Below, one piece after another: positions 13,930-63,624 of a DNA stretch of 64,000 nt; the stretch's first letter is position 1; every line of letters begins with the position of its first letter. The DNA is taken from assembly GCA_025998755.1 (NCBI GenBank), contig AP024674.1, positions 1,936,162-2,000,161 on the forward strand. The letters are read 5' to 3'. The DNA comes from Armatimonadota bacterium (GTDB lineage Bacteria; Armatimonadota; UBA5829; DSUL01). A program made the translations under genes and the position numbers. A model generated the notes under the pieces. That model was not told the origin of the DNA. It did not search any database and saw only the letters and a program-made list of their open reading frames with translations.

Positions 13930-15132
<1,203 letters not shown>

Positions 15133-15321: not shown

Positions 15322-15411
15322 ATTCTTTCCGCAACCCGGCGCCGGCCCGCGGCCGCCGCAGGCTCCCGGTGCCTCGACGGGGCAGCCTGGAACGCCTGCA
15401 TTTTGACAATC

Positions 15412-15494: not shown

Positions 15495-15651
15495 GCAACA
15501 GTCACTGCGCCCATGGCAGGAGCTGCCGCCCCGGCGCAGCCCTGCCGTACAGGGCAACGCCGCGCACGGCGCATTCTAGCGGAATCGCGCCGCTTCCTGC
15601 AACCTCCGCGCACGAGCGTGGGCGCGGACGGCCTCCAAAAAATAGAGTGAG

Positions 15652-15723
15652 AGCCGACGAAGGGAATCGAACCCCCAACCGGCGGTTTACAAAACCGCTG
15701 CTCTACCATTGAGCTACGTCGGC
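15652..15723 (-). tRNA. tRNA-Thr (anticodon TGT)
   Basis: GCCGACGUAGCUCAAUGGUAGAGC...uuUGUaa, T-loop GGTTCGATTCC. Confidence 0.8.
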
Positions 15724-34534: not shown

Positions 34535-37500
34535 TTGGGCTACAATCCCGGCAGAAGCAGAGGCCCGGATATGGTCATGCCGGACGAGCAAGATCCTCTG
34601 GACGGTTTTCACCCCGCCACCGCAGGGTGGTTCCGGCGCGCGCTTGGCCAGCCCACCCCCGCCCAGGCGATGGGATGGCCGCCCATCCGCGCGGGCGAAA
34701 ACACCCTGATCCTTGCCCCGACGGGATCCGGCAAGACTCTGGCCGCCTTTCTGGCAGGGCTGGACCACCTGTTCCAGAAAGGTCTTGAAGGATCGCTGCC
34801 GAAGGGGGTATCACTCCTCTATATCTCCCCGCTCAAGGCTCTGAACTATGACATCGAGCGCAACCTGCGCCACCCTCTTGGGGGAATCGCGCAGGAGATG
34901 CGGCGTATGGGGCTGGAGCCTCCTGAGATACGGACAGCGGTACGGACCGGAGATACACCGTCCCGGGAGCGAGCCCGCATGGCGCGCCGGCCGCCGCACA
35001 TCCTCATCACCACTCCCGAGTCACTCAATCTGATCCTGTGCTCGCGCGCCGCCGCGATGCTTTCCGGCGTGCGGCAGGTCATCGTGGACGAGATCCATTC
35101 CCTGGCATCCAACAAACGGGGAGCATTCCTGTCCGTCTTGCTGGAACGGCTGGAAGACCTGACCGGGCGGAGCTTCTCCCGTGTGGGACTTTCGGCCACC
35201 CAGCGTCCACTGGAGGAGGTGGCCCGGTTTCTGGGTGGATATGACTCCCGAGGGTACCAACGGCCCGTCCGGATTGTGGACGCGGGTGCGCGCAAAAAGC
35301 TGGATGTCGCCGTGGATACCGCCGTGGCGGACTTCCGCACCATGGAGACAGGCGAGCTGTGGCCGTCGCTCGAGGGCAAACTGCTGCGGGAAGTGGAACG
35401 GCGGCGGTCAAGCATCATCTTTGCGAACACGCGCGGGGCGGTGGAGCGCCTCAGCCGGGAACTGAATGAGATGGCCGGGGAACGACTGGTCGAGCCCCAC
35501 CACGGAAGCATCTCCGCGACGCGACGCAGGGAGACGGAGGAGCGCCTGAAGAGGGGAGAGCTGCGAGCCGTGGTCGCCACCGCAAGTCTGGAGCTGGGCA
35601 TAGACATGGGTGCGGTGGAGCTTGTGTGCCAGGTGGGATCGCCGAAGTCTGTCGCCGCCGGTCTGCAGAGAGTGGGACGGGCCGGACATCTGGCCGGAGC
35701 GGAGAGCGTGGGCCGTATTTTCGCGACATCCCCGGTGGATCTTCTGGAAAGTGCGATTCTGGCCGCCGGAATGTTGGAAAGTGAAGTGGAACCGACGCGC
35801 ATCGTCAGCAATCCGCTGGATGTCCTGGCCCAGCAGATTGCGGCGATGTGCGTGCACGGCCCTGTAGATGTCGAGGGCATTTTCAACACGGTCCGGCGCT
35901 CGGCCTGCTTTCACAACCTGTCATCGGAGGCGTTCCATCGCACGCTTGAAATGGTGGCCGGACGGATGGGGAAAGGTCTGCCCGCGCGCGTCTCCCTGGA
36001 CCGTGTGAACGGCCGAGTGCTGCCTCTCCCTGGCACGCTCCGGGCGGTGGTGGCAGGCGGAGGGGTCATCCCGGATACGGGACAGTTCCCGGTGTATCTG
36101 AGCGGTACGCGCACGTCCATCGGGGAGCTGGACGAAGAATTCGTCTTCGAGGCGCGGGAGGGCGACGCGTTCCGGCTGGGAGTGAGCACGTGGCGCATTG
36201 AGAAGATCGAGGCAGACAGAATCTTCGTGCGCCCTTCCCCCGGATCGCCGGCAAAAGCCCCGTTCTGGCGCGGGGAGCAGGTAAGCCGTCCACCCGCCAC
36301 CGGTGAGGCTATCGGCAGGTTCCTGGCGGAGACGGAGGATCTGAAGGGGCTGGAGGAGATCCGCGACTTTGTTCAGCAAAGGACCCCCTGCACGCCGGAG
36401 GCGGCGCGCTCTCTGGCGCAATTCATCCACCGGCAGCGCGAGAAGGGTGCTCTCCCCACGCACCGGCGCATTGTGGTGGAGTTCTACCGTGACGCCATCG
36501 GCGAGGGACGTATGGTGGTCATCACGCCATACGGGTCGCGGGTGCACCAGGCGCTCCGGATTGCCCTGACCGGGATGTTGCAGGATGAGACGGGCGCCGC
36601 TCCGGAGAGCATGGCGGGAGATGAAGGGGTGCTTATCCGGCTGCCTTCGGAAGAGGGCTGCTCCGCAGCGACCTTGAGGAAGCTGACGCCGGAGCGGTTC
36701 CGGGAACTGCTGCGGCGCGGACTGATGCGAAGCGCCCTGTTCGGGCTGCGGTTCCGCCAGAATGCCGCACGAGCCCTGCTGATGCCCCCGCGCCAGCCCG
36801 GCCGCAGGAGTCCTCTGTGGCTCCAGCGCCTGAAGGCGAAGGATCTTCTCCAGATGGTGCGCGGGATCCCGGATTTCCCAGTGGTGCTGGAGACCACGCG
36901 GGAGTGTCTGGAAGAGCAGATGGACGCCGCCCTCACGGAGCGGCTGCTGGCCGGACTCCAGTCCGGGGAGGTGGAGTTAAAGGAGGTGCATTCGGCGGCG
37001 CCCTCACCGTTCGCATCGGCGCTGGAGTTCCAGCTGCAGATGGAGTTCATGTACGTCTGGGACCGGCCGGTGGGGGCTGCAGCACTGGAGGCAGGACCAG
37101 CCGGGCATCAGGCGACACCTCTGACAACCGGACGAGCGCTCGATGGCCGCGCCATCGAGCGGCTCCGGGAGGAGGCTCAAGCACTGTCCTCACGCTCACG
37201 CGCCCGCAACGCCGCAGAGCTGGCGGAGACTCTGCGGCGGCTGGGAGACCTCTCAGCCCATGAGGCCGCGGAGCGCTCCGCCAGCGGCGATCTTTCCCTC
37301 CTGCAGGAGCTCACCGCGACCGGGACAGTGGTTGCACTGGAGATCTGTGGGGAAGAGCGGTTCGTTCTGGCGGAGGAGGCCGCGGAATGGCGGGCAGCCG
37401 TTCGAGATCCGGGCGCGAGCGGGGTTTTCTGGAACAGGGCGGCAGCCCGCCACATCGCGGCAAGCCCTGGATGCCGTCCTGAGGAGTTCGCATCCCGCTA

Positions 37501-38866
37501 TGGTCTGAGTCCGGACTTCGCACGTTCCCGCTTCCAGGAGGCGCGCCATGCGGGTCTGGCTCTGGAGGCGGAAGGCCGCTGGATGACCCCCGAGGCGCTA
37601 GAGGCCGCAGTGCGCATGTCCCGAGGGATCAGGCGCAGAGAGGCGCGGCCGGTACCGCTGGAGTACTTCCAGCAGTTCGTCCTGGCGTGGCAGCACACTC
37701 TCCCGGTAGACCGCCTTCACGGCAGGGAGGGAACGCTGGAGATCCTGGAGCAGCTGGCAGGATGCTGTCTGCCTGCCAGACTCTGGGAGCCGGAGGTTCT
37801 TGCCCGGCGCGTGGAGGGCTACCAACCCGAATGGCTGGACTGGCTGCTGGGAGCCGGCCTTGTGCTCTGGCGCGGCGTTCCGGGAGCAGGCCGACCCGGA
37901 GATCTTGCGCTGCTGCCCAGAGGACTGGAGCGCCTGCCGCTGACCGTACGGGAGCCCGACGCTCCGCCGGAGGGTTCCTTTGAATGCTCCGTGCTGGAGA
38001 CTCTGCGCGAACGCGGCGCAAGCTTTTTGGTGGATCTGGGGCTTGCGCTGAGAACAGACACCCGCAAGATCGAGAAGACGTTAATGGATCTGGCCTGGGC
38101 GGGTCTGGTTACCCACGACTCTTTCGCTCCGGTGCGCGGTAATCAGCCGGCGCCGGACATCCATCGGGAGGCTCAGCGGGCGCACGGTTCTCCTCGCCAT
38201 CGTTACCAGCAGCTCAAACGGTTGCGTCCCGCGTTGAAGCTGGCTGCGCCGGGGCGCTGGCAGGCACTGGATGCATCGCAGACCGTGCTGGACGAGGAAA
38301 CGGTGGAGTTACTTGCCCGTCTTCTGCTGGAGCGCTACGGGGTGGCGGCGCGGGACATCGCTCACCTTGCCGGCATCCCGGCCCCGTGGGTGAGTCTTTA
38401 CCGCGCTCTGGAACGGATGGAGCTGGCGGGCGAGGTGGAAAGGGGATATTTCGTGGAAGATCTGGGTGGCGCTCAGTTTGCTCTGCCGGAAGCTATGCAG
38501 GCGCTGAAAGGCGCCTCGACAGGTGATGCCGCGGTGGTTCTTAACACCTGCGACCCGGCGCTGGTCACCGCCCTCCCCTGCGCGCGGCGGCCCGGCAACT
38601 ATGTTGTTCTGCTGAAGGGAAAGCCTGCGCTGATTCTGGAATCCGCTGCGAAAAGGCTGCTGCCCGTGGGGTCCGAAGCCGGGGCACTGAAATGTCTCCC
38701 GTCCTTGCGTCACGTCCTGGCATCGCCCTGGCCCCTGCGTCCCATCCGCCGCTTGGAGGTTATCCTGTGGGGTGACGCCGAGATCCACGGGCATCCGGTG
38801 GAGAGCGCCCTGAGGTCTCACGGTTTCCAGCGCACACCCAGGGGAATGCTGCTGGAGGCAGGCTGA
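34535..38866 (+). CDS. lhr: ATP-dependent helicase Lhr (full-length large helicase-related protein)
   Basis: 1443 aa; LILAPTGSGKTLAAFLAG Walker A, DEIH, ELGID, QRVGRAGH; long Lhr C-terminal extension. Start possibly at 34577 (MPDEQDPLDGFHPATAGWFRRAL). Confidence 0.85.
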   Translation: MGYNPGRSRGPDMVMPDEQDPLDGFHPATAGWFRRALGQPTPAQAMGWPPIRAGENTLILAPTGSGKTLAAFLAGLDHLFQKGLEGSLPKGVSLLYISPLKALNYDIERNLRHPLGGIAQEMRRMGLEPPEIRTAVRTGDTPSRERARMARRPPHILITTPESLNLILCSRAAAMLSGVRQVIVDEIHSLASNKRGAFLSVLLERLEDLTGRSFSRVGLSATQRPLEEVARFLGGYDSRGYQRPVRIVDAGARKKLDVAVDTAVADFRTMETGELWPSLEGKLLREVERRRSSIIFANTRGAVERLSRELNEMAGERLVEPHHGSISATRRRETEERLKRGELRAVVATASLELGIDMGAVELVCQVGSPKSVAAGLQRVGRAGHLAGAESVGRIFATSPVDLLESAILAAGMLESEVEPTRIVSNPLDVLAQQIAAMCVHGPVDVEGIFNTVRRSACFHNLSSEAFHRTLEMVAGRMGKGLPARVSLDRVNGRVLPLPGTLRAVVAGGGVIPDTGQFPVYLSGTRTSIGELDEEFVFEAREGDAFRLGVSTWRIEKIEADRIFVRPSPGSPAKAPFWRGEQVSRPPATGEAIGRFLAETEDLKGLEEIRDFVQQRTPCTPEAARSLAQFIHRQREKGALPTHRRIVVEFYRDAIGEGRMVVITPYGSRVHQALRIALTGMLQDETGAAPESMAGDEGVLIRLPSEEGCSAATLRKLTPERFRELLRRGLMRSALFGLRFRQNAARALLMPPRQPGRRSPLWLQRLKAKDLLQMVRGIPDFPVVLETTRECLEEQMDAALTERLLAGLQSGEVELKEVHSAAPSPFASALEFQLQMEFMYVWDRPVGAAALEAGPAGHQATPLTTGRALDGRAIERLREEAQALSSRSRARNAAELAETLRRLGDLSAHEAAERSASGDLSLLQELTATGTVVALEICGEERFVLAEEAAEWRAAVRDPGASGVFWNRAAARHIAASPGCRPEEFASRYGLSPDFARSRFQEARHAGLALEAEGRWMTPEALEAAVRMSRGIRRREARPVPLEYFQQFVLAWQHTLPVDRLHGREGTLEILEQLAGCCLPARLWEPEVLARRVEGYQPEWLDWLLGAGLVLWRGVPGAGRPGDLALLPRGLERLPLTVREPDAPPEGSFECSVLETLRERGASFLVDLGLALRTDTRKIEKTLMDLAWAGLVTHDSFAPVRGNQPAPDIHREAQRAHGSPRHRYQQLKRLRPALKLAAPGRWQALDASQTVLDEETVELLARLLLERYGVAARDIAHLAGIPAPWVSLYRALERMELAGEVERGYFVEDLGGAQFALPEAMQALKGASTGDAAVVLNTCDPALVTALPCARRPGNYVVLLKGKPALILESAAKRLLPVGSEAGALKCLPSLRHVLASPWPLRPIRRLEVILWGDAEIHGHPVESALRSHGFQRTPRGMLLEAG

Positions 38867-38913: not shown

Positions 38914-39966
38914 TTGGAGTTCAAACCGGACTGGGAACAGGCTATTAGGCGATTTGAGGCATGGTATGCCTTCGAGGAGTCGGACCGGCCCGTTATGATG
39001 GTCAGCGCTCCGAAGGCGCCCCGTCAGGCTCCTCCCGCTCCTGGAGACCTCCTGCGGCGCTGGACGGACCCGGAATACCTCATTGCCCGTCACGAGGCGG
39101 CCTTCCGTTCCACACACTTTGCCGGAGAATCCTATCCGCTCTGCTGGCCCAACCTCGGACCGGGAATCGCCGGCGCGTTTGCCGGCTGCGAACCCGTCTT
39201 CGACGAGACGACCATGTGGCTCCAGCCGCTGGACCGCCCCCTCTCCGCAATCCATCCAGTCTGGAACGGGGACAACCCCTGGTGGAAGATAACTCTGGAA
39301 CTGACCCGCGCTGCAGCGGAAGCAGGCAAAGGCCGCTGGGTGACCGCCGTCACGGATCTGGGTGGAGTCACGGACGTGCTGGCCGGCATGCGGCATTCCG
39401 ACCGACTGTGCATCGAGATGCTGGAGGAGCCGGAAGAGGTCCTGCGGGTGCGTGACGGCCTGCTGGAGATCTGGAAACGGGCGTACAGTGCGCTGGCGGA
39501 CATCACACAGCCGGCCAACGGAGGCACCACAGGCTGGCTGGGAGCGTTCAGCGTCCACCGAACATATCCTCTCCAGTGCGACTTCTGCTGCATGATCGGA
39601 CCAGACATGTTCGAGCGATTCGTTCTGCCGGAGCTGCGGGAGCTATGCCGGTGGCTGGACCGGTCGGTCTATCATCTGGATGGACCCGGCGCGGTGAAGC
39701 ATCTGGACGCACTGCTTGGCATCCCCGAGCTCAACGCCATCCAGTGGGTTCAGGGCGCGGGACAGGCTCCGACGATCGAGTGGGTGGACTTGCTCAAACG
39801 CATTCTGGATGCCGGGAAGTCCGTCTTCGCCTATGCATCGCCGCAGGAAGTGCGGCCCCTGTTGGAAAGGCTTGGGGCTCGGGGCGTGGCGCTGGCGGTG
39901 GGAGCTTCCACCCCTGAGGAAGCGGATTATCTGGTGCGGATGTCGGGCGAATGGAGCCGCGCCTGA
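38914..39966 (+). CDS. uroporphyrinogen-decarboxylase-like (URO-D fold) protein, function unknown
   Basis: 350 aa, composition and hydropathy of a TIM-barrel enzyme; resembles URO-D/MtaA-like family proteins; no cofactor motif identified by eye. Confidence 0.45.
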   Translation: MEFKPDWEQAIRRFEAWYAFEESDRPVMMVSAPKAPRQAPPAPGDLLRRWTDPEYLIARHEAAFRSTHFAGESYPLCWPNLGPGIAGAFAGCEPVFDETTMWLQPLDRPLSAIHPVWNGDNPWWKITLELTRAAAEAGKGRWVTAVTDLGGVTDVLAGMRHSDRLCIEMLEEPEEVLRVRDGLLEIWKRAYSALADITQPANGGTTGWLGAFSVHRTYPLQCDFCCMIGPDMFERFVLPELRELCRWLDRSVYHLDGPGAVKHLDALLGIPELNAIQWVQGAGQAPTIEWVDLLKRILDAGKSVFAYASPQEVRPLLERLGARGVALAVGASTPEEADYLVRMSGEWSRA

Positions 39967-40733
39967 CGGGCGGTTCGGATTTCAACCCCGCTGCCGCGGA
40001 GGCAAAGCCAAACTCCGCCGTCGCGTCCTGTATTGCAGACCGTTTCGGCCACACCTTCCAGGGAGCGTCTCAGGCCGTAGTCGGCCCACGTGGCACGGGA
40101 GCGTCCGCTGGAGAGAACGGCCACGGCGGGAGCCAGTCCTGGAGGAACGCCGGACGGCTCGCGGGAAGCCGCATAGCTGAGCGCCAGCGCATGCGGGCCA
40201 AATGTGGCCAGAAAGCGGCCGCAACCGGATGACAGGCGGTCCACCAGGGCCACCCTGACCTGTTTCCAGCGCACTGCCAGACACTCCACCTGTCCACCGG
40301 AGCCGTAAGCCTCCATCTCCAGGCCGTCCCGCAGCCGCATCTTCATCCCCGGCCTCAGGGGTTGCCAATCGGAGCCTGAAAGAAGCCCGGCCGGATCGCC
40401 GGCGCACAGAAGCGCCTCGGAGGGCATCTCTTCCAGAAGCTGCGCCACTCCGGAGGCTGCGTCCGGTTCCGTCCGGGTGAGGATGATCGCATCCAGCCGG
40501 TTGACTCCCAGCCGCGCCAGCGCCCGTAGCGCAGCGGTGCCCGGCCGGCTCCGCGGATCGGCGGACCCGCAGTTCACCACCACCGTGCTTCCGCTCGGAG
40601 TGTGGATAATCCAGCACTGTCCGGGGCCGGCGTCCAGGCACTCTAGAACCAGCCCTCCCCTCAAGGGAGCCGTGGCCCACGCCCACAGCCAGACCAGAAG
40701 AATGAAGATGATGACGAGAAATGGCAGCCTCAC
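39927..40733 (-). CDS. comEC: ComEC C-terminal metallo-beta-lactamase-fold module as a separate ORF (degenerate metal site)
   Basis: GTG start overlaps the upstream ComEC ORF stop (GTGA). TM helix then MBL-like LVLECLDAGPGQCWIIHT, but the HxHxDH position reads ILTRTEPD. Confidence 0.6.
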   Translation of the reverse strand: MRLPFLVIIFILLVWLWAWATAPLRGGLVLECLDAGPGQCWIIHTPSGSTVVVNCGSADPRSRPGTAALRALARLGVNRLDAIILTRTEPDAASGVAQLLEEMPSEALLCAGDPAGLLSGSDWQPLRPGMKMRLRDGLEMEAYGSGGQVECLAVRWKQVRVALVDRLSSGCGRFLATFGPHALALSYAASREPSGVPPGLAPAVAVLSSGRSRATWADYGLRRSLEGVAETVCNTGRDGGVWLCLRGSGVEIRTARQARLHSPDIRTR

Positions 40734-42367
40734 CGGGAATGCTCCGGAGTCTTCGCCCTCTGACGAGTTCCTCGCGGGTCAGCCGTTTGCAGGAGCCACC
40801 AGACCGCTGCCATCAGGGCGTACCAACTCGCAATGGCGGGCAGGCCAGGCGTGGGCCAGTGAATTTCTGCCATCGGCAGACTTCCAAGAGCGTCCACCAC
40901 GGCGGCAGTGGCCGAAGCCAACCACTCCACTGTGCGCGAAAGCAGCCAACCTGCTCCCGGTATCCAGAACAGGAAAGCCAGAGCCACTCCCGCCGCGAAC
41001 AGCGTCTCCGCCAGCAACGCAACCGCCAGATTGGCGGGCAGGCTGACCAGGGAAACGCGGTTGAAATAGTAGGCCAGTATTGGCGCCGTCGCCAGCGTGG
41101 CCGCAACCGTCACCAGCGCCACATCGCGGAAGTGCTCCACAATGAATCTTCCCACCAGTGTGACTGGCGGAGTCTGACCGGAGGGGGAATCATCCCGGGC
41201 TTTCAGACGGGACAGAGAACTCAGCCGAGGTACGAAGGCGATGATGGATCCCACCGCTGCGAAGCTCAGTTGAAAGCCCACGTTGGCGATGGCCAGGGGA
41301 TCCAACAGCAGAATGATGAACACAGTGCCAAACAGCACGCTGACCATGTCGGCCGGCCTTCCAATAAGCAGGGCCATAAGATACAGCGTTGCGCCCACGC
41401 CCGCCCGCATGATGGACGGTTTGCCCCCCACCATGAGCACATAGAAGATCACCAGTGCGATGACCAGCAGCAGTGAGAACGCGCGAGGCGCTCCCAGCGG
41501 AAAGAGGAGCCACCGCCAGAAGATCAGCACGATGAGTCCGCAGTTGAAACCGGACGCCGCCAGCAGATGCAGAGTCCCGCTGCGGCGGAAATTCTCCAGC
41601 AGATCTTCCGGCACCATCGAGTAGCTGCCAAGCAGCATCCCGGAGACCAGCCCCGCTTCACGAGCAGGGAGCCGTTCCAGAAAAAGCCTGTTCAACCACC
41701 TCCTCGCTCGGAGGGCAGCGGCGACGGCCGGATTGCCCGCCCGCGATGTCAGGACCTTCACAGAGGCGGGCGCAGCACGGAGAACGCAGAAAATGCCCTG
41801 ACGGGCGAGATACGCCCGGTAAGAGAAACCTCCGGGCTCCCGGGGCCCGAAAGGCAAGACAAGTTGGCCGCCCACCCGCACCCTGCGGCCGTAGTCCGGC
41901 AGGGCGCTCTCCCGGCCTGCCGGAACCGGCAGCACCACCTGCACGGCTCCGTCCACCCGGCTTTCCTGCCGCTCGCTCCAGAGGCTTTCGGCCATAAGCA
42001 CGAACGTGGCGCGGCGGCGGGAGAGTTCGGGCTCCGAGGAGACCCACCCCTCCAACACCACTGTGCCTATCCGTCCGGCGTGCAGTGAAGGGTCTGCCGG
42101 GCCCGGTAACCGCACCGTGGCAGCTCTCCCGAACCCCAGCAGAGCCATGGCCGCCAGCAGGATGGTCCAGCCCTGATGCCCTCTTGCGAACGCAGCAACC
42201 GCGGCGACAGCCGCGATGCAACCCGCCACCGCAGCCGGGAACGGTGTGGCGGCGGACCAGAGCGAGAGCGCACATCCGCCTCCGTAGGCGAGCGCCACAG
42301 GCACAACGGGACGGCTTTTCAGGCTCTCCGGCAAAGGGATGTCTTCAGGTCCCTGTCTCCGGCCCAC
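40730..42367 (-). CDS. comEC: ComEC/Rec2 DNA-internalisation channel, N-terminal part (DUF4131 + competence domain)
   Basis: 545 aa, many TM helices; GTLHLLAASGFNCGLIVLIF, MRAGVGATLYLMALLIGRP, typical of ComEC. Confidence 0.8.
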   Translation of the reverse strand: MGRRQGPEDIPLPESLKSRPVVPVALAYGGGCALSLWSAATPFPAAVAGCIAAVAAVAAFARGHQGWTILLAAMALLGFGRAATVRLPGPADPSLHAGRIGTVVLEGWVSSEPELSRRRATFVLMAESLWSERQESRVDGAVQVVLPVPAGRESALPDYGRRVRVGGQLVLPFGPREPGGFSYRAYLARQGIFCVLRAAPASVKVLTSRAGNPAVAAALRARRWLNRLFLERLPAREAGLVSGMLLGSYSMVPEDLLENFRRSGTLHLLAASGFNCGLIVLIFWRWLLFPLGAPRAFSLLLVIALVIFYVLMVGGKPSIMRAGVGATLYLMALLIGRPADMVSVLFGTVFIILLLDPLAIANVGFQLSFAAVGSIIAFVPRLSSLSRLKARDDSPSGQTPPVTLVGRFIVEHFRDVALVTVAATLATAPILAYYFNRVSLVSLPANLAVALLAETLFAAGVALAFLFWIPGAGWLLSRTVEWLASATAAVVDALGSLPMAEIHWPTPGLPAIASWYALMAAVWWLLQTADPRGTRQRAKTPEHSR

Positions 42368-42403: not shown

Positions 42404-43222
42404 TCAGCGCCGGTACACCAAGGGGTTCAGCGGGCTGGCGGCAACATCGCCCGGTTTCTGACCCGGGAACCACGCCTCCATATCGGCCTGCCGGTTGGGA
42501 TTATCCGGGACGGAGATGACTCCTCCGTCGGCGAAATAGATGATGGTCATCACCTCCCGCATCCGCTCCGTCTGGTTCGGAGGCGCGCAGTGAAGCGTCC
42601 AGCCGCTGTGGAATGTGGCGTCGCCCGCGCGCATCGGCGAGGAAAACACCGGATAGGACTGCTCTTCCACGTGCCGACGGAACAACTCCTCGGACTCATC
42701 GGAAATGGGGATATGCCCCAGAAAACCTTCCCGATGCGACCCGCTGGCGAACGTCAGGGCACCCATTTCCACCGGGACATCCACCAGAGGCATCCACATC
42801 GTCACAGTGGGGACACCATCCAGCGGCCAATAGTACTGGTCCTGATGCCAGGGAGTGTGCCCTCCTCCCGGCTCCTTGAACAGCGCCTGGTCATGATATA
42901 GCCGGACTCCGTCCACACCCATCAGCTCCGCAGCGATCCTGGCGAACCGGCGCGCCAGAACGAAAGGCGCGACTCCGGCGTTTTTCTGCCATAAATTGGT
43001 GATCTGGAGGAACGCCTTGCCGTAGGTGTCGCGCTCCTCCAGGCTGCGCGTCTCGGTGGACAGGCTCCGGACGGCCTCAGCGATGACGGGGCGCCACTTC
43101 GCCGCATCGGCCTCGCTTAGCACTCCTCGGAGCAAAACGTGCCCATCGCGCCGGTATGAATGAATCTGCTCTTCCGTGAGCGGATAGTCTTGCTTCAGTT
43201 CTGGATACTGGTGATCTTTCAC
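42404..43222 (-). CDS. phytanoyl-CoA dioxygenase (PhyH) family Fe(II)/2OG oxygenase
   Basis: HTPWHQDQYYWP...SGSHREG...HSGWTLHCAPPN (H-x-D...H facial triad). GTG start at 43222 with GGAG 9 nt upstream. Confidence 0.75.
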   Translation of the reverse strand: MKDHQYPELKQDYPLTEEQIHSYRRDGHVLLRGVLSEADAAKWRPVIAEAVRSLSTETRSLEERDTYGKAFLQITNLWQKNAGVAPFVLARRFARIAAELMGVDGVRLYHDQALFKEPGGGHTPWHQDQYYWPLDGVPTVTMWMPLVDVPVEMGALTFASGSHREGFLGHIPISDESEELFRRHVEEQSYPVFSSPMRAGDATFHSGWTLHCAPPNQTERMREVMTIIYFADGGVISVPDNPNRQADMEAWFPGQKPGDVAASPLNPLVYRR

Positions 43223-43510
43223 TTCCGCCTGCTCCTTCCCCCGGCCGTGACCGCTTGGAACGCTGCCACTCACCGGTCCCGGTCCAAGTATAACCCGCCC
43301 GCCGCACGCATTCCAGAGGGGTGGACCGCAGTTTTGGAGGACCATACGCAGCCGGCGCGACTCAGGGCCGGCTGGAGGGTAGCCGTCGGTTGAGGAGTAC
43401 GGCCGCGCCGGACAACCCAGCCGCCGCCCCGCCTACAGGCTGTGAGGTGCGCGGAGCCATACTGACAGGGCGGCGAGGAGTGGGCTACAATCGGGAGTAG
43501 CGGATCAGCC

Positions 43511-45322
43511 ATGCCTCACTCCCAAGACCATATTCGCAACTTCTGCATTATCGCGCACATTGACCATGGCAAGTCCACCCTGGCCGACCGCATCCTTGAG
43601 GTGACGGAGGCCGTCTCGGAGCGCGAGAAGCGCGACCAGATGCTGGACACCATGGACCTTGAGCGCGAGCGCGGCATCACCATCAAGATGACCGCGGTTC
43701 GCCTGCTGTACAAAGCAGACGACGGCCAGACCTACACGCTGAATCTGATTGACACACCGGGGCACGTTGATTTCAGCTACGAGGTCTCGCGAAGCCTGAA
43801 CGCCTGCGAGGGAGCCATTCTGGTGGTGGATGCGGCGCAGGGTGTGGAGGCGCAGACCTTGGCGAACGTCAATCTGGCCATGGCCGCCAACCTCACCATC
43901 ATCCCGGTCATCAACAAAATCGACCTGGAGATGGCGGACCCCGAAAGGGTGAAAGAGGAGATCGAAAACGTGCTGGCCATTCCAGCCGAGGATGCGGTGC
44001 TGGCCAGCGCAAGACAGGGCATCGGTACGCGAGAGATCCTGGAGCGCGTGGTCCGCGAGGTGCCGCCTCCTTCCGGCGACCCGGACGCTCCCTTGCGGGC
44101 CCTGATCTTCGACTCCCATTACGACCAGTACCTGGGCGTGGTGGCCTACGTGCGGATTGTGGATGGGCGCCTGCGCCGGGGCGACCGGATCCGGATGATG
44201 TCCAGCAGCAAGGAGTTCGAGGTCACGGCCGTTGGATATTTCCGTCCGGAGATGCTGGAGGGTCCGGAGCTCTCCACCGGGGAGGTCGGGTGGGTGACCG
44301 CGTCCATGAAACAGGTGGGCGACGCCCGCGTGGGAGACACCATCACACTGGCCGGCAGCGCGGGAGCCCGGGAACCTCTGCCGGGATACAAGCGCGCGAA
44401 GCCCATGGTGTCCTGCGGACTGTACCCGATGAACAGCGAGGACTACCCGGACCTGCGTGAGGCTCTGGAGAAGCTGCAGCTGAACGACGCCTCGCTGAGC
44501 TGGGAGCCGGAGACCTCGGCAGCGCTGGGATTCGGATTCCGCTGCGGGTTCCTTGGCCTCCTGCATATGGACATCATCCAGGAGCGGCTGGAGCGGGAGT
44601 TCGGGCTGGACATCATCGCCACCGCCCCGGGTGTGGTTTACCGCGTCCACAAGACGGACGGGACGGTGGAAGAGGTGGACAATCCTTCCAAACTGCCGCC
44701 CGTGACGCAGATTGCGAAGATCGAGGAGCCATTCGTCACCGCAACCATCATTGTCCCGTCGGAGTATCTTGGGGGCGTGATGGAGCTCTGCCAGGATCGC
44801 CGGGGGACCTTCGAGCACATGGAGTACTCCGGCACCACCCGGGTCATTATCACCTACAAGCTGCCGCTGGCGGAGATCCTTATGGACTTCTACGATCAGC
44901 TCAAGAGCCGCACCCGCGGATATGCCTCTTTCGATTACGAGATGGCGGGCTTCCAGGAGTCCAAAGTGGTAAAGCTGGACATCCTGCTGAATGGCCAGCC
45001 GGTGGATGCGTTGTCGTTCATCACTCATCAGGACCGTGCCTACGCGCGAGGCCGGATGCTGGTGGACAAGCTGCGCGACATCCTGCCGCGCCAGCTGTTC
45101 GAGATCCGCGTGCAGGCGGCCATCGGGCAGAAGATCATCGCGGCCAGCAGCATCCGCCCCCTCCGGAAGAACGTCACGGCCAAATGCTACGGCGGCGACA
45201 TCACGCGAAAGCGTAAGCTGCTGGAGAAGCAGAAGGAGGGCAAGAAGAGGATGAAGCAGATCGGCTCCGTGGAAGTGCCGCAGGAGGCGTTCCTTTCCGT
45301 GCTGAAGCTGGGCGGCGACTGA
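43511..45322 (+). CDS. lepA: elongation factor 4
   Basis: 603 aa; [33 protein letters not shown]; LepA C-terminal domain. Confidence 0.95.
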
Positions 45323-45383
45323 TCGGCATTCTTGCCGCACCCTCCAGCCGGGAGCGGCGCCTGGACTCTGGAGCTCCGGACTG

Positions 45384-46328
45384 ATGACTCCTCCCCGCAA
45401 GGAAGCCAAGGCCGATGGCACCGAGGTCTGGCCTGCCTACCTGCGCCTTAGCGGCACAGGAGAGCTGGCGGAGCGCGCCCGGCGCGCCAGAGAACTGCAA
45501 AGCGAGTGCCGTCTGTGTCCGCGAGGGTGCCTTGCGGCCAGACTCTCCAGGGAGATGGGTATCTGCGCCACGCTAGACCAGGCGGTGGTAGCGAGCTATG
45601 GCCCTCATCACGGCGAGGAGTCGTGTCTGAGCGGATGGCGGGGAAGCGGAACAATCTTCTTTTCCGGCTGCTCACTGGGGTGTGTGTTCTGCCAGAACCA
45701 TGACATCAGCCAGCGCAGGTCCGGCGAACCCGTTAGCCCGGAGGAACTCGCGGAGATCATGCTGCAGCTCCAGGCGATGGGCTGTCACAACGTGAACCTG
45801 GTCACCCCCACCCACGTTGTGCCCCAGATCCTGGAGGCGCTGGAGTTGGCCGCCGCAAACGGTCTGCGTCTGCCGCTCGTCTACAACACCTCCGGGTACG
45901 ATTCCATCGAGACGCTGCAGATGCTGGACGGGGTGGTGGACATCTACATGCCGGACGTGAAATTCCTGGACCGCGAGCTGGCTTCGCGCTATCTTAACGC
46001 GCCGGACTATCCGGAGGTGGTCCGGGCAGCCGTTGGCGAGATGCACCGGCAGACAGGTCCTCTGACCTGCGACGATCGGGGGCTGGCGCGCAGAGGAGTT
46101 TTGGTGCGACATCTGGTGATGCCGGGCTGCCTGGAGGACACAAAGCGGGTGCTGCGCTTCCTTGCGTCAGAGATCTCTGCGCGCACGTATGTGAACGTGA
46201 TGGCTCAGTACCGCCCCGAGCACCGCGTCTCCCTGGAGACCTTCCCGGAGATCGCCAGACCGCTGTCCCCGGAAGAATATCAGGAAGCGATCCTGACCGC
46301 CCGCGGGCTGGGCCTGCGTCTGGACTGA
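45384..46328 (+). CDS. radical SAM protein, PflX/YjjW-like (pyruvate formate-lyase activating enzyme homologue)
   Basis: CxxxCxxC cluster FFSGCSLGCVFCQNHDIS; N-terminal CRLCPRGC. Confidence 0.7.
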   Translation: MTPPRKEAKADGTEVWPAYLRLSGTGELAERARRARELQSECRLCPRGCLAARLSREMGICATLDQAVVASYGPHHGEESCLSGWRGSGTIFFSGCSLGCVFCQNHDISQRRSGEPVSPEELAEIMLQLQAMGCHNVNLVTPTHVVPQILEALELAAANGLRLPLVYNTSGYDSIETLQMLDGVVDIYMPDVKFLDRELASRYLNAPDYPEVVRAAVGEMHRQTGPLTCDDRGLARRGVLVRHLVMPGCLEDTKRVLRFLASEISARTYVNVMAQYRPEHRVSLETFPEIARPLSPEEYQEAILTARGLGLRLD

Positions 46329-51697: not shown

Positions 51698-52806
51698 GCT
51701 ACTTGCTGACAGGTCTGGCGATAGCCGGAGGGCTGGCGGCGCTGACGGCGGGAGCGGAGCTGCTGGTGCGCGGCGCTTCCCGGTTGGCACGCGCCGCCGG
51801 TGTCTCTCCGCTGGTTATCGGCCTGACCGTGGTGGCCGTCGGCACCAGCGCTCCGGAGATCGCGGTCACTGTGGGAGCCGCCGTCACTGGAGAAGCGGAG
51901 ATCGCGCTGGGCAACGTCGTGGGGAGCAACATCTTCAACGTGCTCGCCGTGCTGGGTCTTTCGGCTCTGGCGTCCCCGCTGGTGGTACAGAGGCGGATTG
52001 TGCGAAGCGAGGTCCCCGTCATGGTGCTGCTGAGTTTCGGCGTGGCCGCGCTGTGTCTGGACGGCTCCCTGGGACGCCTGGAAGGAGCTGCACTGGCTGC
52101 CTGCCTGGCAGGTTATCTGTGGTGGATGGTACGGAGGGCTCGGGCGGAAGGAAACGGGCCGGAGGTCGCGCTCGACGGCGCAAAGTCGCCGGGCCTCAAC
52201 ATTGTGCGGGATGTGGTGCTGACGGCCGCTGGGCTGCTTCTGCTCCCCGCCGGCGCGCGCTTGCTGGTGAGCGGCGCATCCGAGATCGCCCGGGCGCTGG
52301 GGGCGACGGAACTGGTCATCGGTCTGACCATTGTGGCTGCAGGGACATCCCTGCCCGAGGCTGCCACGTCCGTGATGGCCACACTCCGGGGCGAGCGGGA
52401 TATCGCTGTGGGCAATGTGGTGGGCAGCAACATTTTCAACCTGCTGGGGGTGCTGGGTCTGGCCGGCCTGGTGTCCCCTTCTCCCGCAAGCGTCCCCGAA
52501 GCCGCACTGCGATTCGACATTCCGGTCATGCTGGCATGCGCGGTGGCATGCCTGCCGGTGGCATACACGGGCTACCGCATAGACCGCTGGGAAGGAGCGC
52601 TTTTCGTCGCGTACTATTTGGCCTATCTGACCTTCCTGGCATTGGACGCCACTGACCATTCCGCCGCCGGACCGTACGCGCGTGTCATGCTGGCGTTCGT
52701 GCTTCCGATTACCGCCGTGACCCTCGGCACCTTGGCCGTCCGAACGTGGACGGCTCGCCGCTTCCGGGCACGGGCGAGGGCCAGCGTAAGAGAGGCGGGG
52801 CGATGA
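51694..52806 (+). CDS. CaCA-family Na+/Ca2+ exchanger (YrbG-like)
   Basis: Two alpha-repeat motifs GNVVGSNIFNVL / GNVVGSNIFNLL, ~10 TM helices; ATGA overlap with the exonuclease stop and with the ligase start. Confidence 0.85.
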   Translation: MSYLLTGLAIAGGLAALTAGAELLVRGASRLARAAGVSPLVIGLTVVAVGTSAPEIAVTVGAAVTGEAEIALGNVVGSNIFNVLAVLGLSALASPLVVQRRIVRSEVPVMVLLSFGVAALCLDGSLGRLEGAALAACLAGYLWWMVRRARAEGNGPEVALDGAKSPGLNIVRDVVLTAAGLLLLPAGARLLVSGASEIARALGATELVIGLTIVAAGTSLPEAATSVMATLRGERDIAVGNVVGSNIFNLLGVLGLAGLVSPSPASVPEAALRFDIPVMLACAVACLPVAYTGYRIDRWEGALFVAYYLAYLTFLALDATDHSAAGPYARVMLAFVLPITAVTLGTLAVRTWTARRFRARARASVREAGR

Positions 52807-56848: not shown

Positions 56849-57504
56849 AAGGCGCGTGTTCTCTAAGCGTGCGCGGGCAGGAGCTTGTCCTTTTGCCCGA
56901 CAAGGCACTGTGGTGGCCGCAGCAGGAAGCGCTCGTCATTGCCGATCCCCATCTGGGAAAAGCGGCGGCGCTGCGCGCCGCGCGAATGCCCCTGCCCGGC
57001 GGGAGCACGAGTGAAGACCTGGGCCGCCTGTCCGCGATGCTGGACGCTACAGGGGCCAGAAGGCTTATTGTCCTGGGGGATCTGTTGCACGCACGCGAAG
57101 GGCGCGCCGTCCGCACGCTGGAGGTTGTATCGCGATGGAGAGAGCGGCATTGCGGACTTGAGATGACGCTGGTTCGGGGTAATCATGACTGCCGAGCCGG
57201 TGATCCCCCTGCGGAGTGGAACATTCAGTGTGTGGACGAGCCTTTCAAGCTCGGTCCCTTCCGTTTCTGCCACGCGCCGCACGAGGACGGGGGAGACGGC
57301 TACTGGATTGCCGGACATCTGCATCCGGCCGTTTTGCTGCGTGGGCCTGCACGGCTTAGGGAGAGACTGCCGTGCTTCCTTTTCGGGCCAGCCGGGGCGA
57401 TTCTGCCCTCATTCGGATCGCTTACAGGGGCGGCGCTGGTGCGCCCACGCGAGGGAGATCGCATCTTCGTAACAGCCGATGGAGCAGTGCTGGAGGTGAA
57501 ATGA
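56845..57504 (+). CDS. pdeM: ligase-associated metallophosphoesterase nuclease (PdeM/MPE)
   Basis: ADPHLGK, LGDLLH, GNHD calcineurin-like motifs; GTGA overlap with the helicase stop. Confidence 0.8.
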   Translation: MKGACSLSVRGQELVLLPDKALWWPQQEALVIADPHLGKAAALRAARMPLPGGSTSEDLGRLSAMLDATGARRLIVLGDLLHAREGRAVRTLEVVSRWRERHCGLEMTLVRGNHDCRAGDPPAEWNIQCVDEPFKLGPFRFCHAPHEDGGDGYWIAGHLHPAVLLRGPARLRERLPCFLFGPAGAILPSFGSLTGAALVRPREGDRIFVTADGAVLEVK

Positions 57505-60249: not shown

Positions 60250-61176
60250 ATGAGTATTCTCCGGGAAAAGCCTGGCGCGGACCGGGCCGCACGCTCAAGC
60301 ATCGCCCGCCCAGTGCCAATAATCGCTATAGCAACGGTGCTCCTTGTGTGCTCGGGATGCTTCCGGCCGGAAGTGCCGGAAGCCCGCCTACGGGTGGTCT
60401 TCCCGGACCTGGGACAGGCCGAGGCCATCATTCTGCAGACGAAGGATGCAGCCCTCCTGGTAGATTGCGGCGAGACCGACAGCGGACCGGCCATCCTCCG
60501 GGAGCTGCGCCGGCTCGGCATCAACAGACTGGACCTGGTTTTCCTGACCCATCCGCACGCGGATCATATTGGCGGATTTCCGTATCTGGCCGATCGGATG
60601 CGCGTCCGGCTATTGATGGACTCAGGCTTTCTGCAGGAGTCGGCCCTTCAGGCAAAAGTGATGCATACGGCGCGGCAGCAGGGGATCCCCCGGCGTCGTG
60701 CGGTGGCAGGGCAGTTCATCCGGCTGGGAGACAGCCTCTCCTTCTCGGTGCTTTGGCCGGAGCGTCGTCACATGACCGGGACGGAGTCGGATGCGAACAA
60801 CAACTCGGTGGTGCTGATGGTCCGGCACGGCGCGGTGCGCATCCTGCTGACCGGCGACCTGCAACAGGAAGGGGAGTTCGCGCTGATGCGTCGCTGGCCG
60901 GATCTGCGGGCGGACGTGCTGAAAGTGGGCCATCAGGGATCCGACGATGCCGCCGGCGCGCCGCTTCTGTCAAGGGTACAGCCTCGCTGGGCGGTGATCG
61001 TGGCCGGCAGGGACAACAGTTACGGGCATCCCTCGCCCCGGACGGTGCAGCGGTTGCGCTCCGCAGGGGCCACCGTGCTCTGTACCGCTTCGGTGGGCAA
61101 GGTGGAGTTCGAGTCTGACGGCCGGACGATCCGGCCGGTCAGGGAGCGCCTGGCGGTTCCCGCCGCCAGCCGCTGA
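60250..61176 (+). CDS. ComEC-type metallo-beta-lactamase-fold lipoprotein
   Basis: Lipobox LLVCSGC; LVDCGETD...[13 protein letters not shown]...GDLQQEGE...KVGHQGS, typical of the ComEC C-terminal hydrolase domain. Confidence 0.75.
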
Positions 61177-61223: not shown

Positions 61224-61883
61224 ATGAATGGCGATTTCAGACCCGGCGGCCCCGGGATAACGGCGCTGGAAGCATCCGGCTCTGTCACCAGTCTTCCTCG
61301 CCCCCACTCGCTGGCAATACTCTCCTGCGGAGTGGGCGCGGACCAGGTTTTGGGAGCGGTGCTCTCCAGTGTGCGATACGGTTCCTCAACGGCGATAGCG
61401 GCGTTTCCTGATGTGCGCAGGGGATTCTGCCGGCTTCTATGCGACCGCCTTTCGGTGGAATGCGGCCTTTCCATCTCGGAGCTGACGGAAACGCAGGCTC
61501 ACACCACGCAATCCCCCTGCATCGTACCTGCACAGTACACGGCACGATGGAGCGAGGCCGCTCCGGGCGGTCCTATCCGTATAGAAGCGGTCGAGATCGA
61601 GGAGGGCGCAGAGGCAGGCTCCCGTCTGCGCAGCGCGTGCTCCTCGGCGATCACAGTGTTCGGCGGCGACATCTGGCTGGTGGTGCTCGCCGGAATGGCA
61701 TCGAACGACATTGTGGAGGCGGCTCGGGTGGTTAAAAACGCGGGAGGAAGGGTGAGCGTGCAGGATGAACCCACATCCCTCATCTGGGACGCTCCCCGGA
61801 GTGTGCTGCAGGCCGGGCTTTCTGATGAGATGCTGCCCCTCTGGGGGGTGAGCGGCCTGCTGGGAATGGCGGCAGAGGGCTAG
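61224..61883 (+). CDS. CheB methylesterase-like domain protein (stand-alone, probably catalytically degenerate)
   Basis: C-terminal LAGMASNDIVEAARVVKNAGGRVSVQDEPTSLIWDAPRSVLQAG...LPL matches the CheB catalytic-domain C-terminus; the expected GASTGG Ser and QHM His positions read ILSCGVGA and IAAFPD. Confidence 0.45.
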   Translation: MNGDFRPGGPGITALEASGSVTSLPRPHSLAILSCGVGADQVLGAVLSSVRYGSSTAIAAFPDVRRGFCRLLCDRLSVECGLSISELTETQAHTTQSPCIVPAQYTARWSEAAPGGPIRIEAVEIEEGAEAGSRLRSACSSAITVFGGDIWLVVLAGMASNDIVEAARVVKNAGGRVSVQDEPTSLIWDAPRSVLQAGLSDEMLPLWGVSGLLGMAAEG

Positions 61884-61887
61884 CGGG

Positions 61888-63624
61888 ATGGTCTCAGCAG
61901 ACACCTTTTACCGCAACAGACTGGGGGGTATCCTCCTGGCAGCGGGGCTGGTCTCGGAAAAGGAGATCGAGGATGCCCTAGATACGCAGCGTCAAACCGG
62001 CCAGAGGCTCGGAGACACGCTGGTGCAGGCGGGCCTGGTCCACGAGGAGGATATCGTGGAGGCCCGGAGCCTGCAACTGGATATCCCGCACGTGCATCTT
62101 GTGCCTGAGCAGGTTGACCCGGAGGTCGCCCGCCTGGTGCCCGAACCCATTGCTCGGCAGTATCAGCTTGTGCCCATCAGCGCCCGCGACGACTGCCTGG
62201 TCATCGCGATGTTCGATCCGCTGGACGTGGAAGCTGTGGATCTGGTCCAGCGGGTGACCCGCCGCAATGTCAAGCCGGTGGTTGCGAGCGAGCAAGCCAT
62301 TACCGCCCTCATAGACGCCACCTGGGGCGGCGGCCAGAGCGCGGAGCTCGCGGAGGTCCTGGAGGAGGCGATGGACTCCATGAGCGACCTGGAGGTGGCA
62401 GAGTCCGCGGACGAAGAAGAAGGCGACCTCGCCGAGGCCCGGCGGATGAGCGAACAGGCGCCCATCGTCCGGACGGTAAACCACATCCTGCGGGATGCCG
62501 TCAACCTCGGCGCAAGCGACATCCACGTTGAGCCGCGATCAAACGGGTGCCTGGTGCGCTTCCGCGTGGATGGAGCGTTGCGGGACGTCAAACTGCTGCC
62601 AAAACCCATCCAGGCGGCCATCATCTCCCGATTGAAGATCATGGGAGATCTGGACATCGCCGAGAAGCGGCTGCCCCAGGACGGCCGCATCACCATCCGC
62701 GTGGCGCGCCGGACCGTGGATATCCGGCTATCCACTTTGCCCACCCATCACGGCGAGCGCGTCGTGATGCGGCTGCTGGACAAGAGCGTCAACGCTCTGA
62801 AGCTGGAGCAGCTCGGCTTCTCGGATCATGGGCTGGACGCCATCCGGCAGATCATCCGCAAACCCTACGGAATCGTCCTGGTCACGGGGCCGACCGGAAG
62901 CGGCAAGACCACCACGCTGTACTCCTGCCTCAGCGAGGTGCGCAGCCCGGAGATCAACATCATCACGGTGGAGGATCCCATCGAGTACGAGCTGGAGGGC
63001 GTCAGCCAGTCGGCAGTCAACGTGAAAGCCGGGTTGACCTTCGCCAAGCAGCTGCGCGCCATATTGCGTCAGGATCCGGATGTCATCCTGGTGGGTGAGA
63101 TCAGGGACCAGGAGACCGCCGACATCGCCTTCCGCGCTAGTATGACCGGGCATCTGGTCTTCAGCACTTTGCACTGCAATGATGCTGCCGGCGCGTTCGC
63201 CCGACTTACGGATATGGGCGTGGAGCCGTTCCTGATCGCGTCCTCCCTCAGCGCGGTGCTGGCTCAAAGGCTGGTGCGCACCATCTGCCCCGCTTGCCGC
63301 GAGCAGTATGAACCGGGGCCCGAAGAGGCAGCCCTGCTGGCCGCCAATGGGATAGACGCGGCCGGGTTGCGCCTGGCGCGCGGCCGCGGCTGTAAGACTT
63401 GCGCCAACACGGGCTTCAAGGGCCGCACTCTGGTGTCCGAAGTGTTGCCGGTCTCCAGCGAGATCCGTCGGATGGCGGTGAGGTGCGAGTCTGCGGACGT
63501 GATCCGAGCCCAGGCTATCGCCGAAGGGATGAGCTCAATGCGCCAGGACGCATTCCGCAAAGTGGTGGAAGGCCTGACCACACTGGATGAGATTTGCCGG
63601 AAAGTGCTGGTGACTGAGGAATAG
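61888..63624 (+). CDS. gspE: type II secretion / type IV pilus assembly ATPase (GspE/PilB family)
   Basis: T2SSE_N domain at N-terminus; Walker A VTGPTGSGKTTTLYS; Asp box, Walker B, His box; tetracysteine CPACR...CKTCANTG. Confidence 0.9.
   Translation: MVSADTFYRNRLGGILLAAGLVSEKEIEDALDTQRQTGQRLGDTLVQAGLVHEEDIVEARSLQLDIPHVHLVPEQVDPEVARLVPEPIARQYQLVPISARDDCLVIAMFDPLDVEAVDLVQRVTRRNVKPVVASEQAITALIDATWGGGQSAELAEVLEEAMDSMSDLEVAESADEEEGDLAEARRMSEQAPIVRTVNHILRDAVNLGASDIHVEPRSNGCLVRFRVDGALRDVKLLPKPIQAAIISRLKIMGDLDIAEKRLPQDGRITIRVARRTVDIRLSTLPTHHGERVVMRLLDKSVNALKLEQLGFSDHGLDAIRQIIRKPYGIVLVTGPTGSGKTTTLYSCLSEVRSPEINIITVEDPIEYELEGVSQSAVNVKAGLTFAKQLRAILRQDPDVILVGEIRDQETADIAFRASMTGHLVFSTLHCNDAAGAFARLTDMGVEPFLIASSLSAVLAQRLVRTICPACREQYEPGPEEAALLAANGIDAAGLRLARGRGCKTCANTGFKGRTLVSEVLPVSSEIRRMAVRCESADVIRAQAIAEGMSSMRQDAFRKVVEGLTTLDEICRKVLVTEE

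Follow-up and report, generated by a model that had tools for sequence, protein, structure and literature searches.

An Armatimonadota ComEC encoded by two overlapping genes, the second for a metallo-β-lactamase-fold subunit that has very probably lost catalysis

Analysis of a 64,000-nucleotide (nt) stretch from an Armatimonadota bacterium (assembly GCA_025998755.1, contig AP024674.1, forward-strand positions 1,936,162 to 2,000,161), hereafter the window, revealed that the competence protein ComEC is divided between two open reading frames (ORFs). ORF1 (40730..42367, minus strand, 545 residues) encodes the OB fold and the Competence channel, and ORF2 (39927..40733, minus strand, 268 residues) encodes a transmembrane (TM) helix followed by a degenerate ComEC-type metallo-β-lactamase (MBL) fold. 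ORF2 is identical to protein KatS3mg024_1628 of the metagenome-assembled genome (MAG) Armatimonadota bacterium KatS3mg024. We are highly confident that the locus specifies a real two-gene ComEC with a non-catalytic MBL subunit. A separate gene in the window, ORF3 (60250..61176, plus strand, 308 residues), encodes an intact stand-alone ComEC-type MBL. The initial annotation of this DNA had described the split, the degenerate motif and the separate MBL; its coordinates, start/stop overlap and domain assignments for the two halves of comEC all agree with the present results.

ORF1 consists of a DUF4131 domain with the OB fold (residues 45-202) and a Competence channel domain (residues 244-527). 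Both passed the gathering scores of Pfam, with an E-value of 7e-53 and 180.1 bits against a cut-off of 23 for Competence (PF03772), and 7e-28 and 97.8 bits against 31.6 for DUF4131 (PF13567). ORF1 also scored 82.5 against a cut-off of 36.5 with the TIGR00360 model of the ComEC N-terminal part, and matched the isolated OB-fold chain 9iew_A (E=3e-10). Its start is uncertain, as GenBank places it at a TTG codon 11 codons further downstream, giving 534 residues. The C-terminus of ORF1 is a basic tail ending in DPRGTRQRAKTPEHSR (given elsewhere as RGTRQRAKTPEHSR), which is predicted to be cytoplasmic.

Among the Pfam models of MBL families, ORF2 gave only a sub-threshold match to Lactamase_B_2 (12.8 bits against a cut-off of 27). 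A profile was built from six close sequences of the ORF2 family and searched exhaustively against 1.84 billion representative proteins. It recovered six family clusters at 50% identity with E-values of 1e-27 or lower and, after a gap, the C-terminal ~270 residues (~500-800) of ComEC proteins of 750-850 residues, with E-values down to 4e-13; stand-alone MBLs of ~300 residues were matched as well. The best sequence match of ORF2 in the PDB is residues 532-629 of the ComEC chain 30bt_A. The AlphaFold2 model of ORF2 (predicted local distance difference test 87.5, predicted template modelling score 0.84) shows an N-terminal helix of residues 3-25 followed by an αβ/βα sandwich, and its closest structure in the PDB is the crystal structure of the β-lactamase-like domain of Moorella glycerini ComEC (PDB 9ic4; E=1e-14, template modelling score 0.72). 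The N-terminal helix (LPFLVIIFILLVWLWAWATAPLR; 40659..40727, minus strand) corresponds to the last TM helix of single-chain ComEC (about residues 510-531 of 30bt_A).

In alignments with full-length ComEC chains, ORF1 covers about residue 4 to about residue 511, and ORF2 about 510 to 800. Together the two products (545+268 = 813 residues) span one single-chain ComEC of ~800 residues without gap or duplication, and alignment to full-length proteins places the domain boundary where the initial annotation had drawn it. As judged from these alignments, ORF2 is over its whole length a homologue of the last TM helix and the MBL domain of full-length ComEC. With the model TIGR00361, which covers the three domains in one chain and has a cut-off of 190 bits, ORF1, ORF2 and ORF3 scored 91.3, 12.6 and 134.4 bits, respectively; therefore no single product corresponds to a full-length ComEC. 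The break lies in the loop before the last TM helix; judging by the basic tail of ORF1 and the topology of single-chain ComEC, this loop would be cytoplasmic and the MBL fold outside.

The two ORFs meet in a tetranucleotide GTGA (40730..40733, minus strand), in which the GTG start of ORF2 (40733..40731) overlaps the TGA stop of ORF1 (40732..40730), so that ORF2 is read in the -1 frame relative to ORF1. A Shine-Dalgarno-like GGAG (40742..40745, minus strand) forms part of the end of ORF1 and precedes the ORF2 start by 8 nt. Alignment of six independently assembled junctions showed that GTGA is invariant and that GGAG or GGGAG occupies the same place in all of them, in flanking DNA that varies at many positions. 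Start/stop overlap and Shine-Dalgarno-like sequence within the upstream gene are thus both kept in all six loci, an arrangement typical of termination-reinitiation coupling, by which the two halves of comEC would be coupled in translation. A -1 frame and a summed length equal to that of a full-length ComEC would also fit a programmed ribosomal frameshift yielding one continuous protein, in which case the split would be only apparent. However, the junction (CAT TCC CGG TGA) contains no slippery heptamer of the form X_XXY_YYZ, and the codons ahead of the stop vary between loci, the Shine-Dalgarno-like sequence and the start codon being conserved instead. Moreover, in a sister clade whose MBLs are intact, the two ORFs overlap by 14-65 nt and the second is read in the +1 frame, not the -1 frame of the window's clade, so there is no conserved recoding site. 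We regard programmed frameshifting as very improbable.

A more mundane possibility is that a sequencing or assembly error, or a very recent pseudogenisation, broke a single-chain comEC, since two ORFs one frame apart with a 4-nt overlap are what a 1-nt insertion or deletion would produce. Homologues of ORF2 were first gathered by a word-indexed search, which found five stand-alone proteins of 255-268 residues with 64-87% identity. Contigs carrying close homologues came from JGI, ENA, NCBI and Logan assemblies, and share the order of a PhyH-family gene, a ComEC of 551-562 residues with DUF4131 and Competence domains, an ORF2 homologue with a 4-nt overlap, a convergent gene of 350 residues and an Lhr helicase gene. 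The 4-nt overlap is also present in loci L007, L008 and L096. It is kept even with remoter ComEC relatives (46-51% identity), whose partners of 257-264 residues are 28-36% identical to ORF2. Altogether, at least eight independent assemblies have this GTGA junction, with ORF2 products of 28-87% identity, and an artefact would have to be one systematic error repeated across platforms and across 13-72% protein divergence, which is implausible. The ~50 nearest homologues of ORF1 (33-88% identity) are all 503-562 residues long and have no MBL domain, and every named one belongs to Armatimonadota. A related genome with one continuous ORF differing by a single nucleotide at the junction would have spoken for an error; no relative showed such an ORF, and two ORFs were found at nine or more related loci, with a 4-nt overlap throughout the window's clade.

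The ratio of nonsynonymous to synonymous substitution rates (dN/dS; Nei-Gojobori, unsaturated pairs) is 0.19-0.32 for ORF2, 0.16-0.26 for ORF1 and 0.25 for ORF3, which indicates that ORF2 is under purifying selection, as is ORF1. As the junction is conserved across assemblies and the ratios of ORF2 fall in the same range as those of ORF1 and ORF3, we exclude a sequencing error and a decaying pseudogene, and give the artefact next to no weight. Slow decay of the gene is equally ruled out by these ratios and by the intact ORFs throughout the clade.

Compared to its intact relatives, ORF2 has lost most of the catalytic site. At motif II (40449..40478, minus strand) it reads TRTEPDAASG in place of THPHxDHIGG, the region of motif V reads SYAAS, not GHHGS, and GHP has become TWAD; none of the metal-binding motifs II (HxH/DxDH), IV (Asp) and V (His) is present. 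In the M. glycerini domain, the mutations H598A, D602A, H603A, D700A and H725A virtually inactivate the enzyme and D600A cuts its activity about five-fold, and equivalent mutations in Legionella pneumophila abolish transformation (Stedman et al., PMC12455585). Aligned with this domain, ORF2 has R87 at the position of H598, E89 at D600, A92 at H603, R166 at D700 (with D165 adjacent) and Y187 at H725, and retains D91 at D602 and S190 at the substrate-contacting S728. Of the six residues that two-metal catalysis requires, four are therefore missing. Motif states were read from hmmalign alignments, as the pattern H.H.DH is too strict, many active ComECs having HxDxDH. Motif II is missing in all ten members of the degenerate clade, and H-x-[HDNQE]-x-D-H is kept in each of the 55 other MBL modules compared, whether comEC-adjacent, stand-alone or fused. 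Because published mutagenesis of homologues shows that the lost residues are essential, ORF2 is almost certainly not a nuclease, in line with the inactivity suspected in the initial annotation.

ORF2 might still be an enzyme whose active site has been remodelled around acidic residues and conserved cysteines, and which cleaves DNA or a new substrate. D34, E89, D91, D165, S190 and several cysteines are invariant or nearly so in the family, and Silale et al. caution that the substitutions in the C-terminal domain of Streptococcus pneumoniae ComEC need not abolish activity. Yet no single one of the equivalents of H598, H603, D700 and H725 can be dispensed with, as seen in vitro for M. glycerini and in vivo for L. 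pneumophila (PMC12455585), and all four are replaced non-conservatively in ORF2, by Arg, Ala, Arg and Tyr. In addition, the deepest member of the family, P0251, lacks even the Asp of motif II (LGYSRTAEQW). Retention of catalysis in this form appears improbable to us.

The degenerate family is best conserved in the stretches ECxDxGxGQCW, NCGS, ALxRxGVN, ALVDRL, S190, TGRDGGV and SSGRSRxxWADYGL. The last of these corresponds to loop 2 of ComEC (GRxNxFGHP), and its equivalent in ORF2 (SSGRSRATWADYGL, short form SGRSRATWADYGL; 40071..40112, minus strand) is among the best conserved segments of the family. In L. pneumophila ComEC, loop 2 is the “pin loop” at the channel entrance, whose aromatic residues are essential for transformation. 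As the fold, the DNA-contacting S190 and the strongly conserved loop 2 are all kept, the role of ORF2 is most likely structural.

The split extends well beyond the window's closest relatives. Three-domain ComEC proteins appear only at 35% identity to ORF1 or less, and in other phyla, with the exception of one fused protein of 907 residues labelled Armatimonadetes; every Armatimonadota-type comEC locus examined is split. The premise of the initial annotation that ComEC is normally one polypeptide thus holds as a rule, with Armatimonadota as a group in which two genes are the usual form. In more distant loci (L009/L013, L010, L014, L015, L019, L035 and L048), a ComEC of 511-563 residues is followed by an overlapping ORF of ~290-320 residues, which keeps HPHxDH, TGD, HHGS and GHP and lies in the +1 frame relative to comEC. 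These split ComECs share with the window's locus the position of the break, the gene order and the overlap of the ORFs, and adjoin the degenerate clade in the tree. They differ in that the partner keeps its catalytic motifs and is recognised by Pfam Lactamase_B, and in the length and frame of the overlap. The same loop is broken in both clades and the junction has been remodelled.

In a neighbour-joining tree, the degenerate clade is monophyletic (100%) on a long branch next to the comEC-adjacent MBLs of Armatimonadota, in a topology whose deep nodes are weak (50-60%). From this distribution, the split is ancestral to the loss of the motif, which marks one subclade only. The most economical history would start from an ancient fission in Armatimonadota, or from genes that were never fused there, with catalysis lost later in a single subclade. 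For a view across phyla, 80 loci listed from a profile scan with a ComEC alignment were examined; this sample does not contain the window's genome or its close relatives and is no census of Armatimonadota. Among these loci, 13 short ComECs are complete, and an MBL gene adjoins 8 of them. Independent examples outside Armatimonadota are seen at L056:1561-3883 (Patescibacteria) and L088:3773-5895, where a short ComEC is followed by an overlapping gene for a TM helix and an MBL with the motif THPDLDH or THPETDH. In the literature we found no account of a split comEC, of an Armatimonadota ComEC or of a separately encoded dead C-terminal domain.

Canonical ComEC/Rec2 of Bacillus subtilis and Moorella (PDB 30bt, 9vc6, 9ic4) contains the three modules of ORF1 plus ORF2 in unchanged order. 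However, it is one chain, whereas here two polypeptides are separated in the loop before the last TM helix; and its MBL domain is a Mn2+-dependent nuclease, whereas ORF2 lacks the ligands of the two metals. A precedent is offered by S. pneumoniae, in which the C-terminal domain of ComEC is considered probably inactive and the membrane nuclease EndA degrades the strand in trans; an inactive C-terminal domain was proposed to be “retained to act as a guide” for DNA (Silale et al. 2021). Both systems keep an MBL domain with substituted metal ligands. The pneumococcal domain is still fused and its substitutions are milder (Asn/Glu/Asn), and EndA has an unrelated fold; at the window's locus, by contrast, the dead domain has a gene of its own, and the candidate nuclease is paralogous to it.

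Reading 60 fused ComEC C-termini with hmmalign revealed whole groups with degenerate motifs. Fused proteins of Chloroflexota/Anaerolineae, Zixibacteriota and Verrucomicrobiales have lost motifs II, IV and V and keep a C-terminal domain of fold length, as illustrated by ASTQENQVAA / LLPIGVN / LADSGYA in Anaerolineae/Chloroflexia. They differ from ORF2 in being single polypeptides of independent origin, and are not its close relatives. Such loci include L036, L057-L061, L064, L074, L077 and L079 in Chloroflexota, L017, L041 and L049 in Zixibacteriota, and L070. Dead ComEC C-terminal domains thus look common and appear to have arisen repeatedly. ORF1 taken alone has the “DC profile” (DUF4131 plus Competence) of ComECs of the Helicobacter pylori type (Pimentel & Zhang 2018), and a domain survey of that kind would score it as lacking the C-terminal domain; the difference is that here this domain is present, encoded by the next gene.

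ORF3 carries the catalytic motifs I-V intact: DLGQ, HPHADH (60550..60567, plus strand), NNNS, TGD, GHQGS and GHPS. It passes Pfam Lactamase_B with 69.2 bits against a cut-off of 22.7, and matches positions 419-663, the C-terminal 245, of the ComEC_Rec2 model TIGR00361 (E=4e-39) and residues 512-789 of the ComEC chain 30bt_A (E=2e-33). At the end of its putative signal peptide stands a lipobox-like xGC with Cys37 (60358..60360, plus strand). A hydrophobic region and xGC are present in seven of the eight members of the ORF3 clade, with LGGC, VGGC, TTGC and AAGC in relatives, and ORF3 itself has CSGC, which is non-canonical at position -3. ORF3 is thus probably a lipoprotein; failing that, it would at least be exported and tethered to the membrane. 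Its initial description as an intact ComEC-type MBL lipoprotein fits the complete set of motifs and would also suit the conserved hydrophobic region and lipobox-like xGC.

Downstream of ORF3 lie a gene for a CheB-methylesterase-like single-domain protein (61224..61883, plus strand), which always directly follows the ORF3 orthologue, and a gene for a PilB/GspE-type ATPase with MshEN and T2SSE domains (61888..63624, plus strand; T2SSE E=9e-137), the last of the operon. The order MBL, CheB-like, PilB is kept in 11 metagenome loci and around orthologues of 71% and 53% identity. By its place in the operon the ATPase gene links ORF3 to a type IV filament machine, and in the majority of transformable bacteria DNA is taken up by means of type IV pili. 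As regards natural transformation by way of ORF1 and ORF2, this ATPase is all that was seen in the window. The homologues of ORF3 fall off in steps of 82%, ~70% and 48-53% identity and then reach generic stand-alone MBLs at ~40%, a series that mirrors that of ORF1 (88%, ~75%, 44-54%, then 38% or less). Orthologues of ORF1/ORF2 and of ORF3, at matching degrees of divergence, occur together on this chromosome, in the JGI metagenome 3300007072/Ga0073932 (L004 and L099), in the assemblies FWPV01, FWWL01 and FWWM01 (L001-L003 with L011, L012, L105 and L106) and in SRR25131601 (L096 and L093). This co-occurrence of ORF3 with the dead subunit, counted in five datasets, is consistent with co-inheritance and is no proof of functional coupling. 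A recent duplication of ORF2 as the source of ORF3 is not supported, as ORF3 groups with stand-alone and not with comEC-adjacent MBLs (deep nodes 50-60%).

The CheB-like protein between the MBL and PilB genes has no receiver domain and is present in every orthologous locus. Some relatives at ~65% identity have an ORF3 orthologue without its stop codon, TAG having changed to CAG. At L102:3017-4633 the MBL reads in frame into the CheB-like gene to give 538 residues (compare L103:3017-3934), and P0130 is a fusion of an MBL and a CheB-like domain of 530 residues (PF00753 + PF01339); at L107:3036-4133 the stop is lost too, but a 1-nt deletion shifts the frame. An exported MBL fused to a normally cytoplasmic domain is odd.

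The present results suggest how this ComEC may be produced and how it may function. We propose that gene 1 provides the OB fold and the membrane channel, and gene 2 the last TM helix and the extracytoplasmic MBL-fold domain. Ribosomes ending on gene 1 would reinitiate on gene 2 and thereby make matched amounts of both chains, which would assemble into the usual ComEC architecture. The dead MBL subunit is most likely retained for a structural role, giving the channel entrance its shape, and may guide or separate the strands via loop 2 and S190. In the least certain step, the non-transported strand would be degraded in the periplasm by another nuclease, most likely ORF3, which is the best candidate because it is an intact ComEC-type MBL with a lipoprotein-like signal, is encoded in an operon with a PilB-type ATPase and is apparently co-inherited with the dead subunit. 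Taken as a whole, the picture of a two-subunit ComEC with a dead MBL kept as a structural element and ORF3 as the best candidate for a nuclease in trans is one that we favour with moderate confidence. Its last part is more tentative: that ORF3 in fact degrades the non-transported strand is possible, at somewhat less than even chances. Of a similarly speculative kind is the idea that labour was divided after an ancient fission of comEC, the MBL subunit being kept purely as a strand-separating or guiding “pin” and degradation passing to a lipoprotein MBL that is its paralogue and is expressed together with the pilus ATPase, for which we put the chances at roughly one in three.

Several points weigh against this picture. 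The alignment behind the AlphaFold2 model of ORF2 is dominated by intact MBLs, so that the model leans on them. ORF2 keeps D34, E89, D91 and D165 along with the invariant C32, C40 and C55, which may form a remodelled metal site. The organism is represented by an uncultured MAG, and the assembly of the chains, the translational coupling and the loss of activity are all deduced from sequence. As to ORF3, its link to ComEC is correlative, drawn from co-occurrence and operon context; it groups in the neighbour-joining tree, with 60% bootstrap, with widespread stand-alone ComEC-like MBLs, and such MBLs also occur in bacteria with an intact fused ComEC. Another Armatimonadota MAG (L094:3529-4788) has a different stand-alone ComEC-like MBL of 343 residues followed by a DUF3006 gene, a pair that adjoins HepT/MNT toxin-antitoxin and BrxC/BrxD-like genes.

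ORF3 might also be a protein that has nothing to do with the function of ComEC. It could serve a type IV filament system as a nuclease or phosphodiesterase of the periplasm or cell surface, or be used in scavenging extracellular DNA; the non-transported strand would then be displaced, or degraded by some other nuclease. The clustering of ORF3 with MBLs that coexist with intact ComEC in other phyla, the different MBL paired with DUF3006 in the other MAG, its location 18 kb from comEC in a different operon and the fact that H. pylori transforms without any ComEC MBL all favour such a role. Against it stand the ComEC-type signature of ORF3 in both TIGR00361 and 30bt_A, the operon with a PilB-type ATPase, and an ORF3 clade that is as deep as the clade of dead subunits and is found in the same datasets. 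We consider this alternative, with the displaced or otherwise degraded strand included, less likely than not, though it is the most serious rival that we weighed.

Around the two-gene comEC, the gene for a PhyH-family dioxygenase (42404..43345, minus strand) lies 36 nt upstream on the same strand and adjoins comEC in L001, L004, L006, L008 and L096 as well; as a conserved same-strand neighbour, it is probably part of the comEC transcription unit. On the other side, the gene for the conserved protein of 350 residues (38914-39966, plus strand) converges on ORF2, the two sharing 40 nt at their 3' ends (39927-39966), as in L004 and L006; in L001 the overlap is 4 nt. A Pfam search of this protein gave no match, and Rfam, promoter and terminator scans added nothing at the comEC locus. 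The window contains two helicases of the Lhr family. A long Lhr of 1443 residues (34535-38866, plus strand) lies beside comEC, as it does in L001, L003 and L004. Ahead of the second, an Lhr-core protein of 1015 residues, lies the overlapping gene of an ATP-dependent DNA ligase (52746-54407), and behind it that of an Exo_endo_phos nuclease (57372-58562); this region (52746-58562, plus strand) resembles a DNA-repair cluster and lies just upstream of hisF and ORF3. A long antisense ORF of 638 residues (43505-45421, minus strand), opposite the gene of a LepA-like GTPase (43511-45322), is not a gene; stop-poor antisense frames are typical of high-GC DNA, and many such shadow ORFs lie around comEC. 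A cluster of four tRNA genes is found at 13542-15723 (minus strand; Rfam RF00005).

The components and the logic of this system, namely the domains of ComEC, the inactive C-terminal domain and a nuclease in trans, are already known. Specific here is the combination of a gene of its own for the domain, ligands that are lost far more completely and a candidate nuclease that is a paralogue. Practical impact is limited, as the organism is an uncultured thermophile among the hot-spring Armatimonadota, in which the system is out of reach of experiments. The split marks a natural domain boundary, which could aid expression and structural work on a protein that is hard to produce. Surveys with Pfam profiles that assign a “DC profile” overlook a C-terminal domain when it has a gene of its own behind comEC, which calls for caution with their counts. 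The locus bears on two questions of the ComEC literature (Silale et al. 2021), namely what becomes of the non-transported strand in the roughly half of ComECs scored as being without the C-terminal domain, and for what reason a C-terminal domain that seems inactive is retained in certain species. Should the proposed division of labour be true, part of the ~50% of ComECs said to lack this domain would have it in trans. That a dead MBL has its own gene, and that this gene is under purifying selection, speaks for a function of the fold other than catalysis, and the locus may thus offer specialists on ComEC a natural separation of the structural from the catalytic role of the C-terminal domain.

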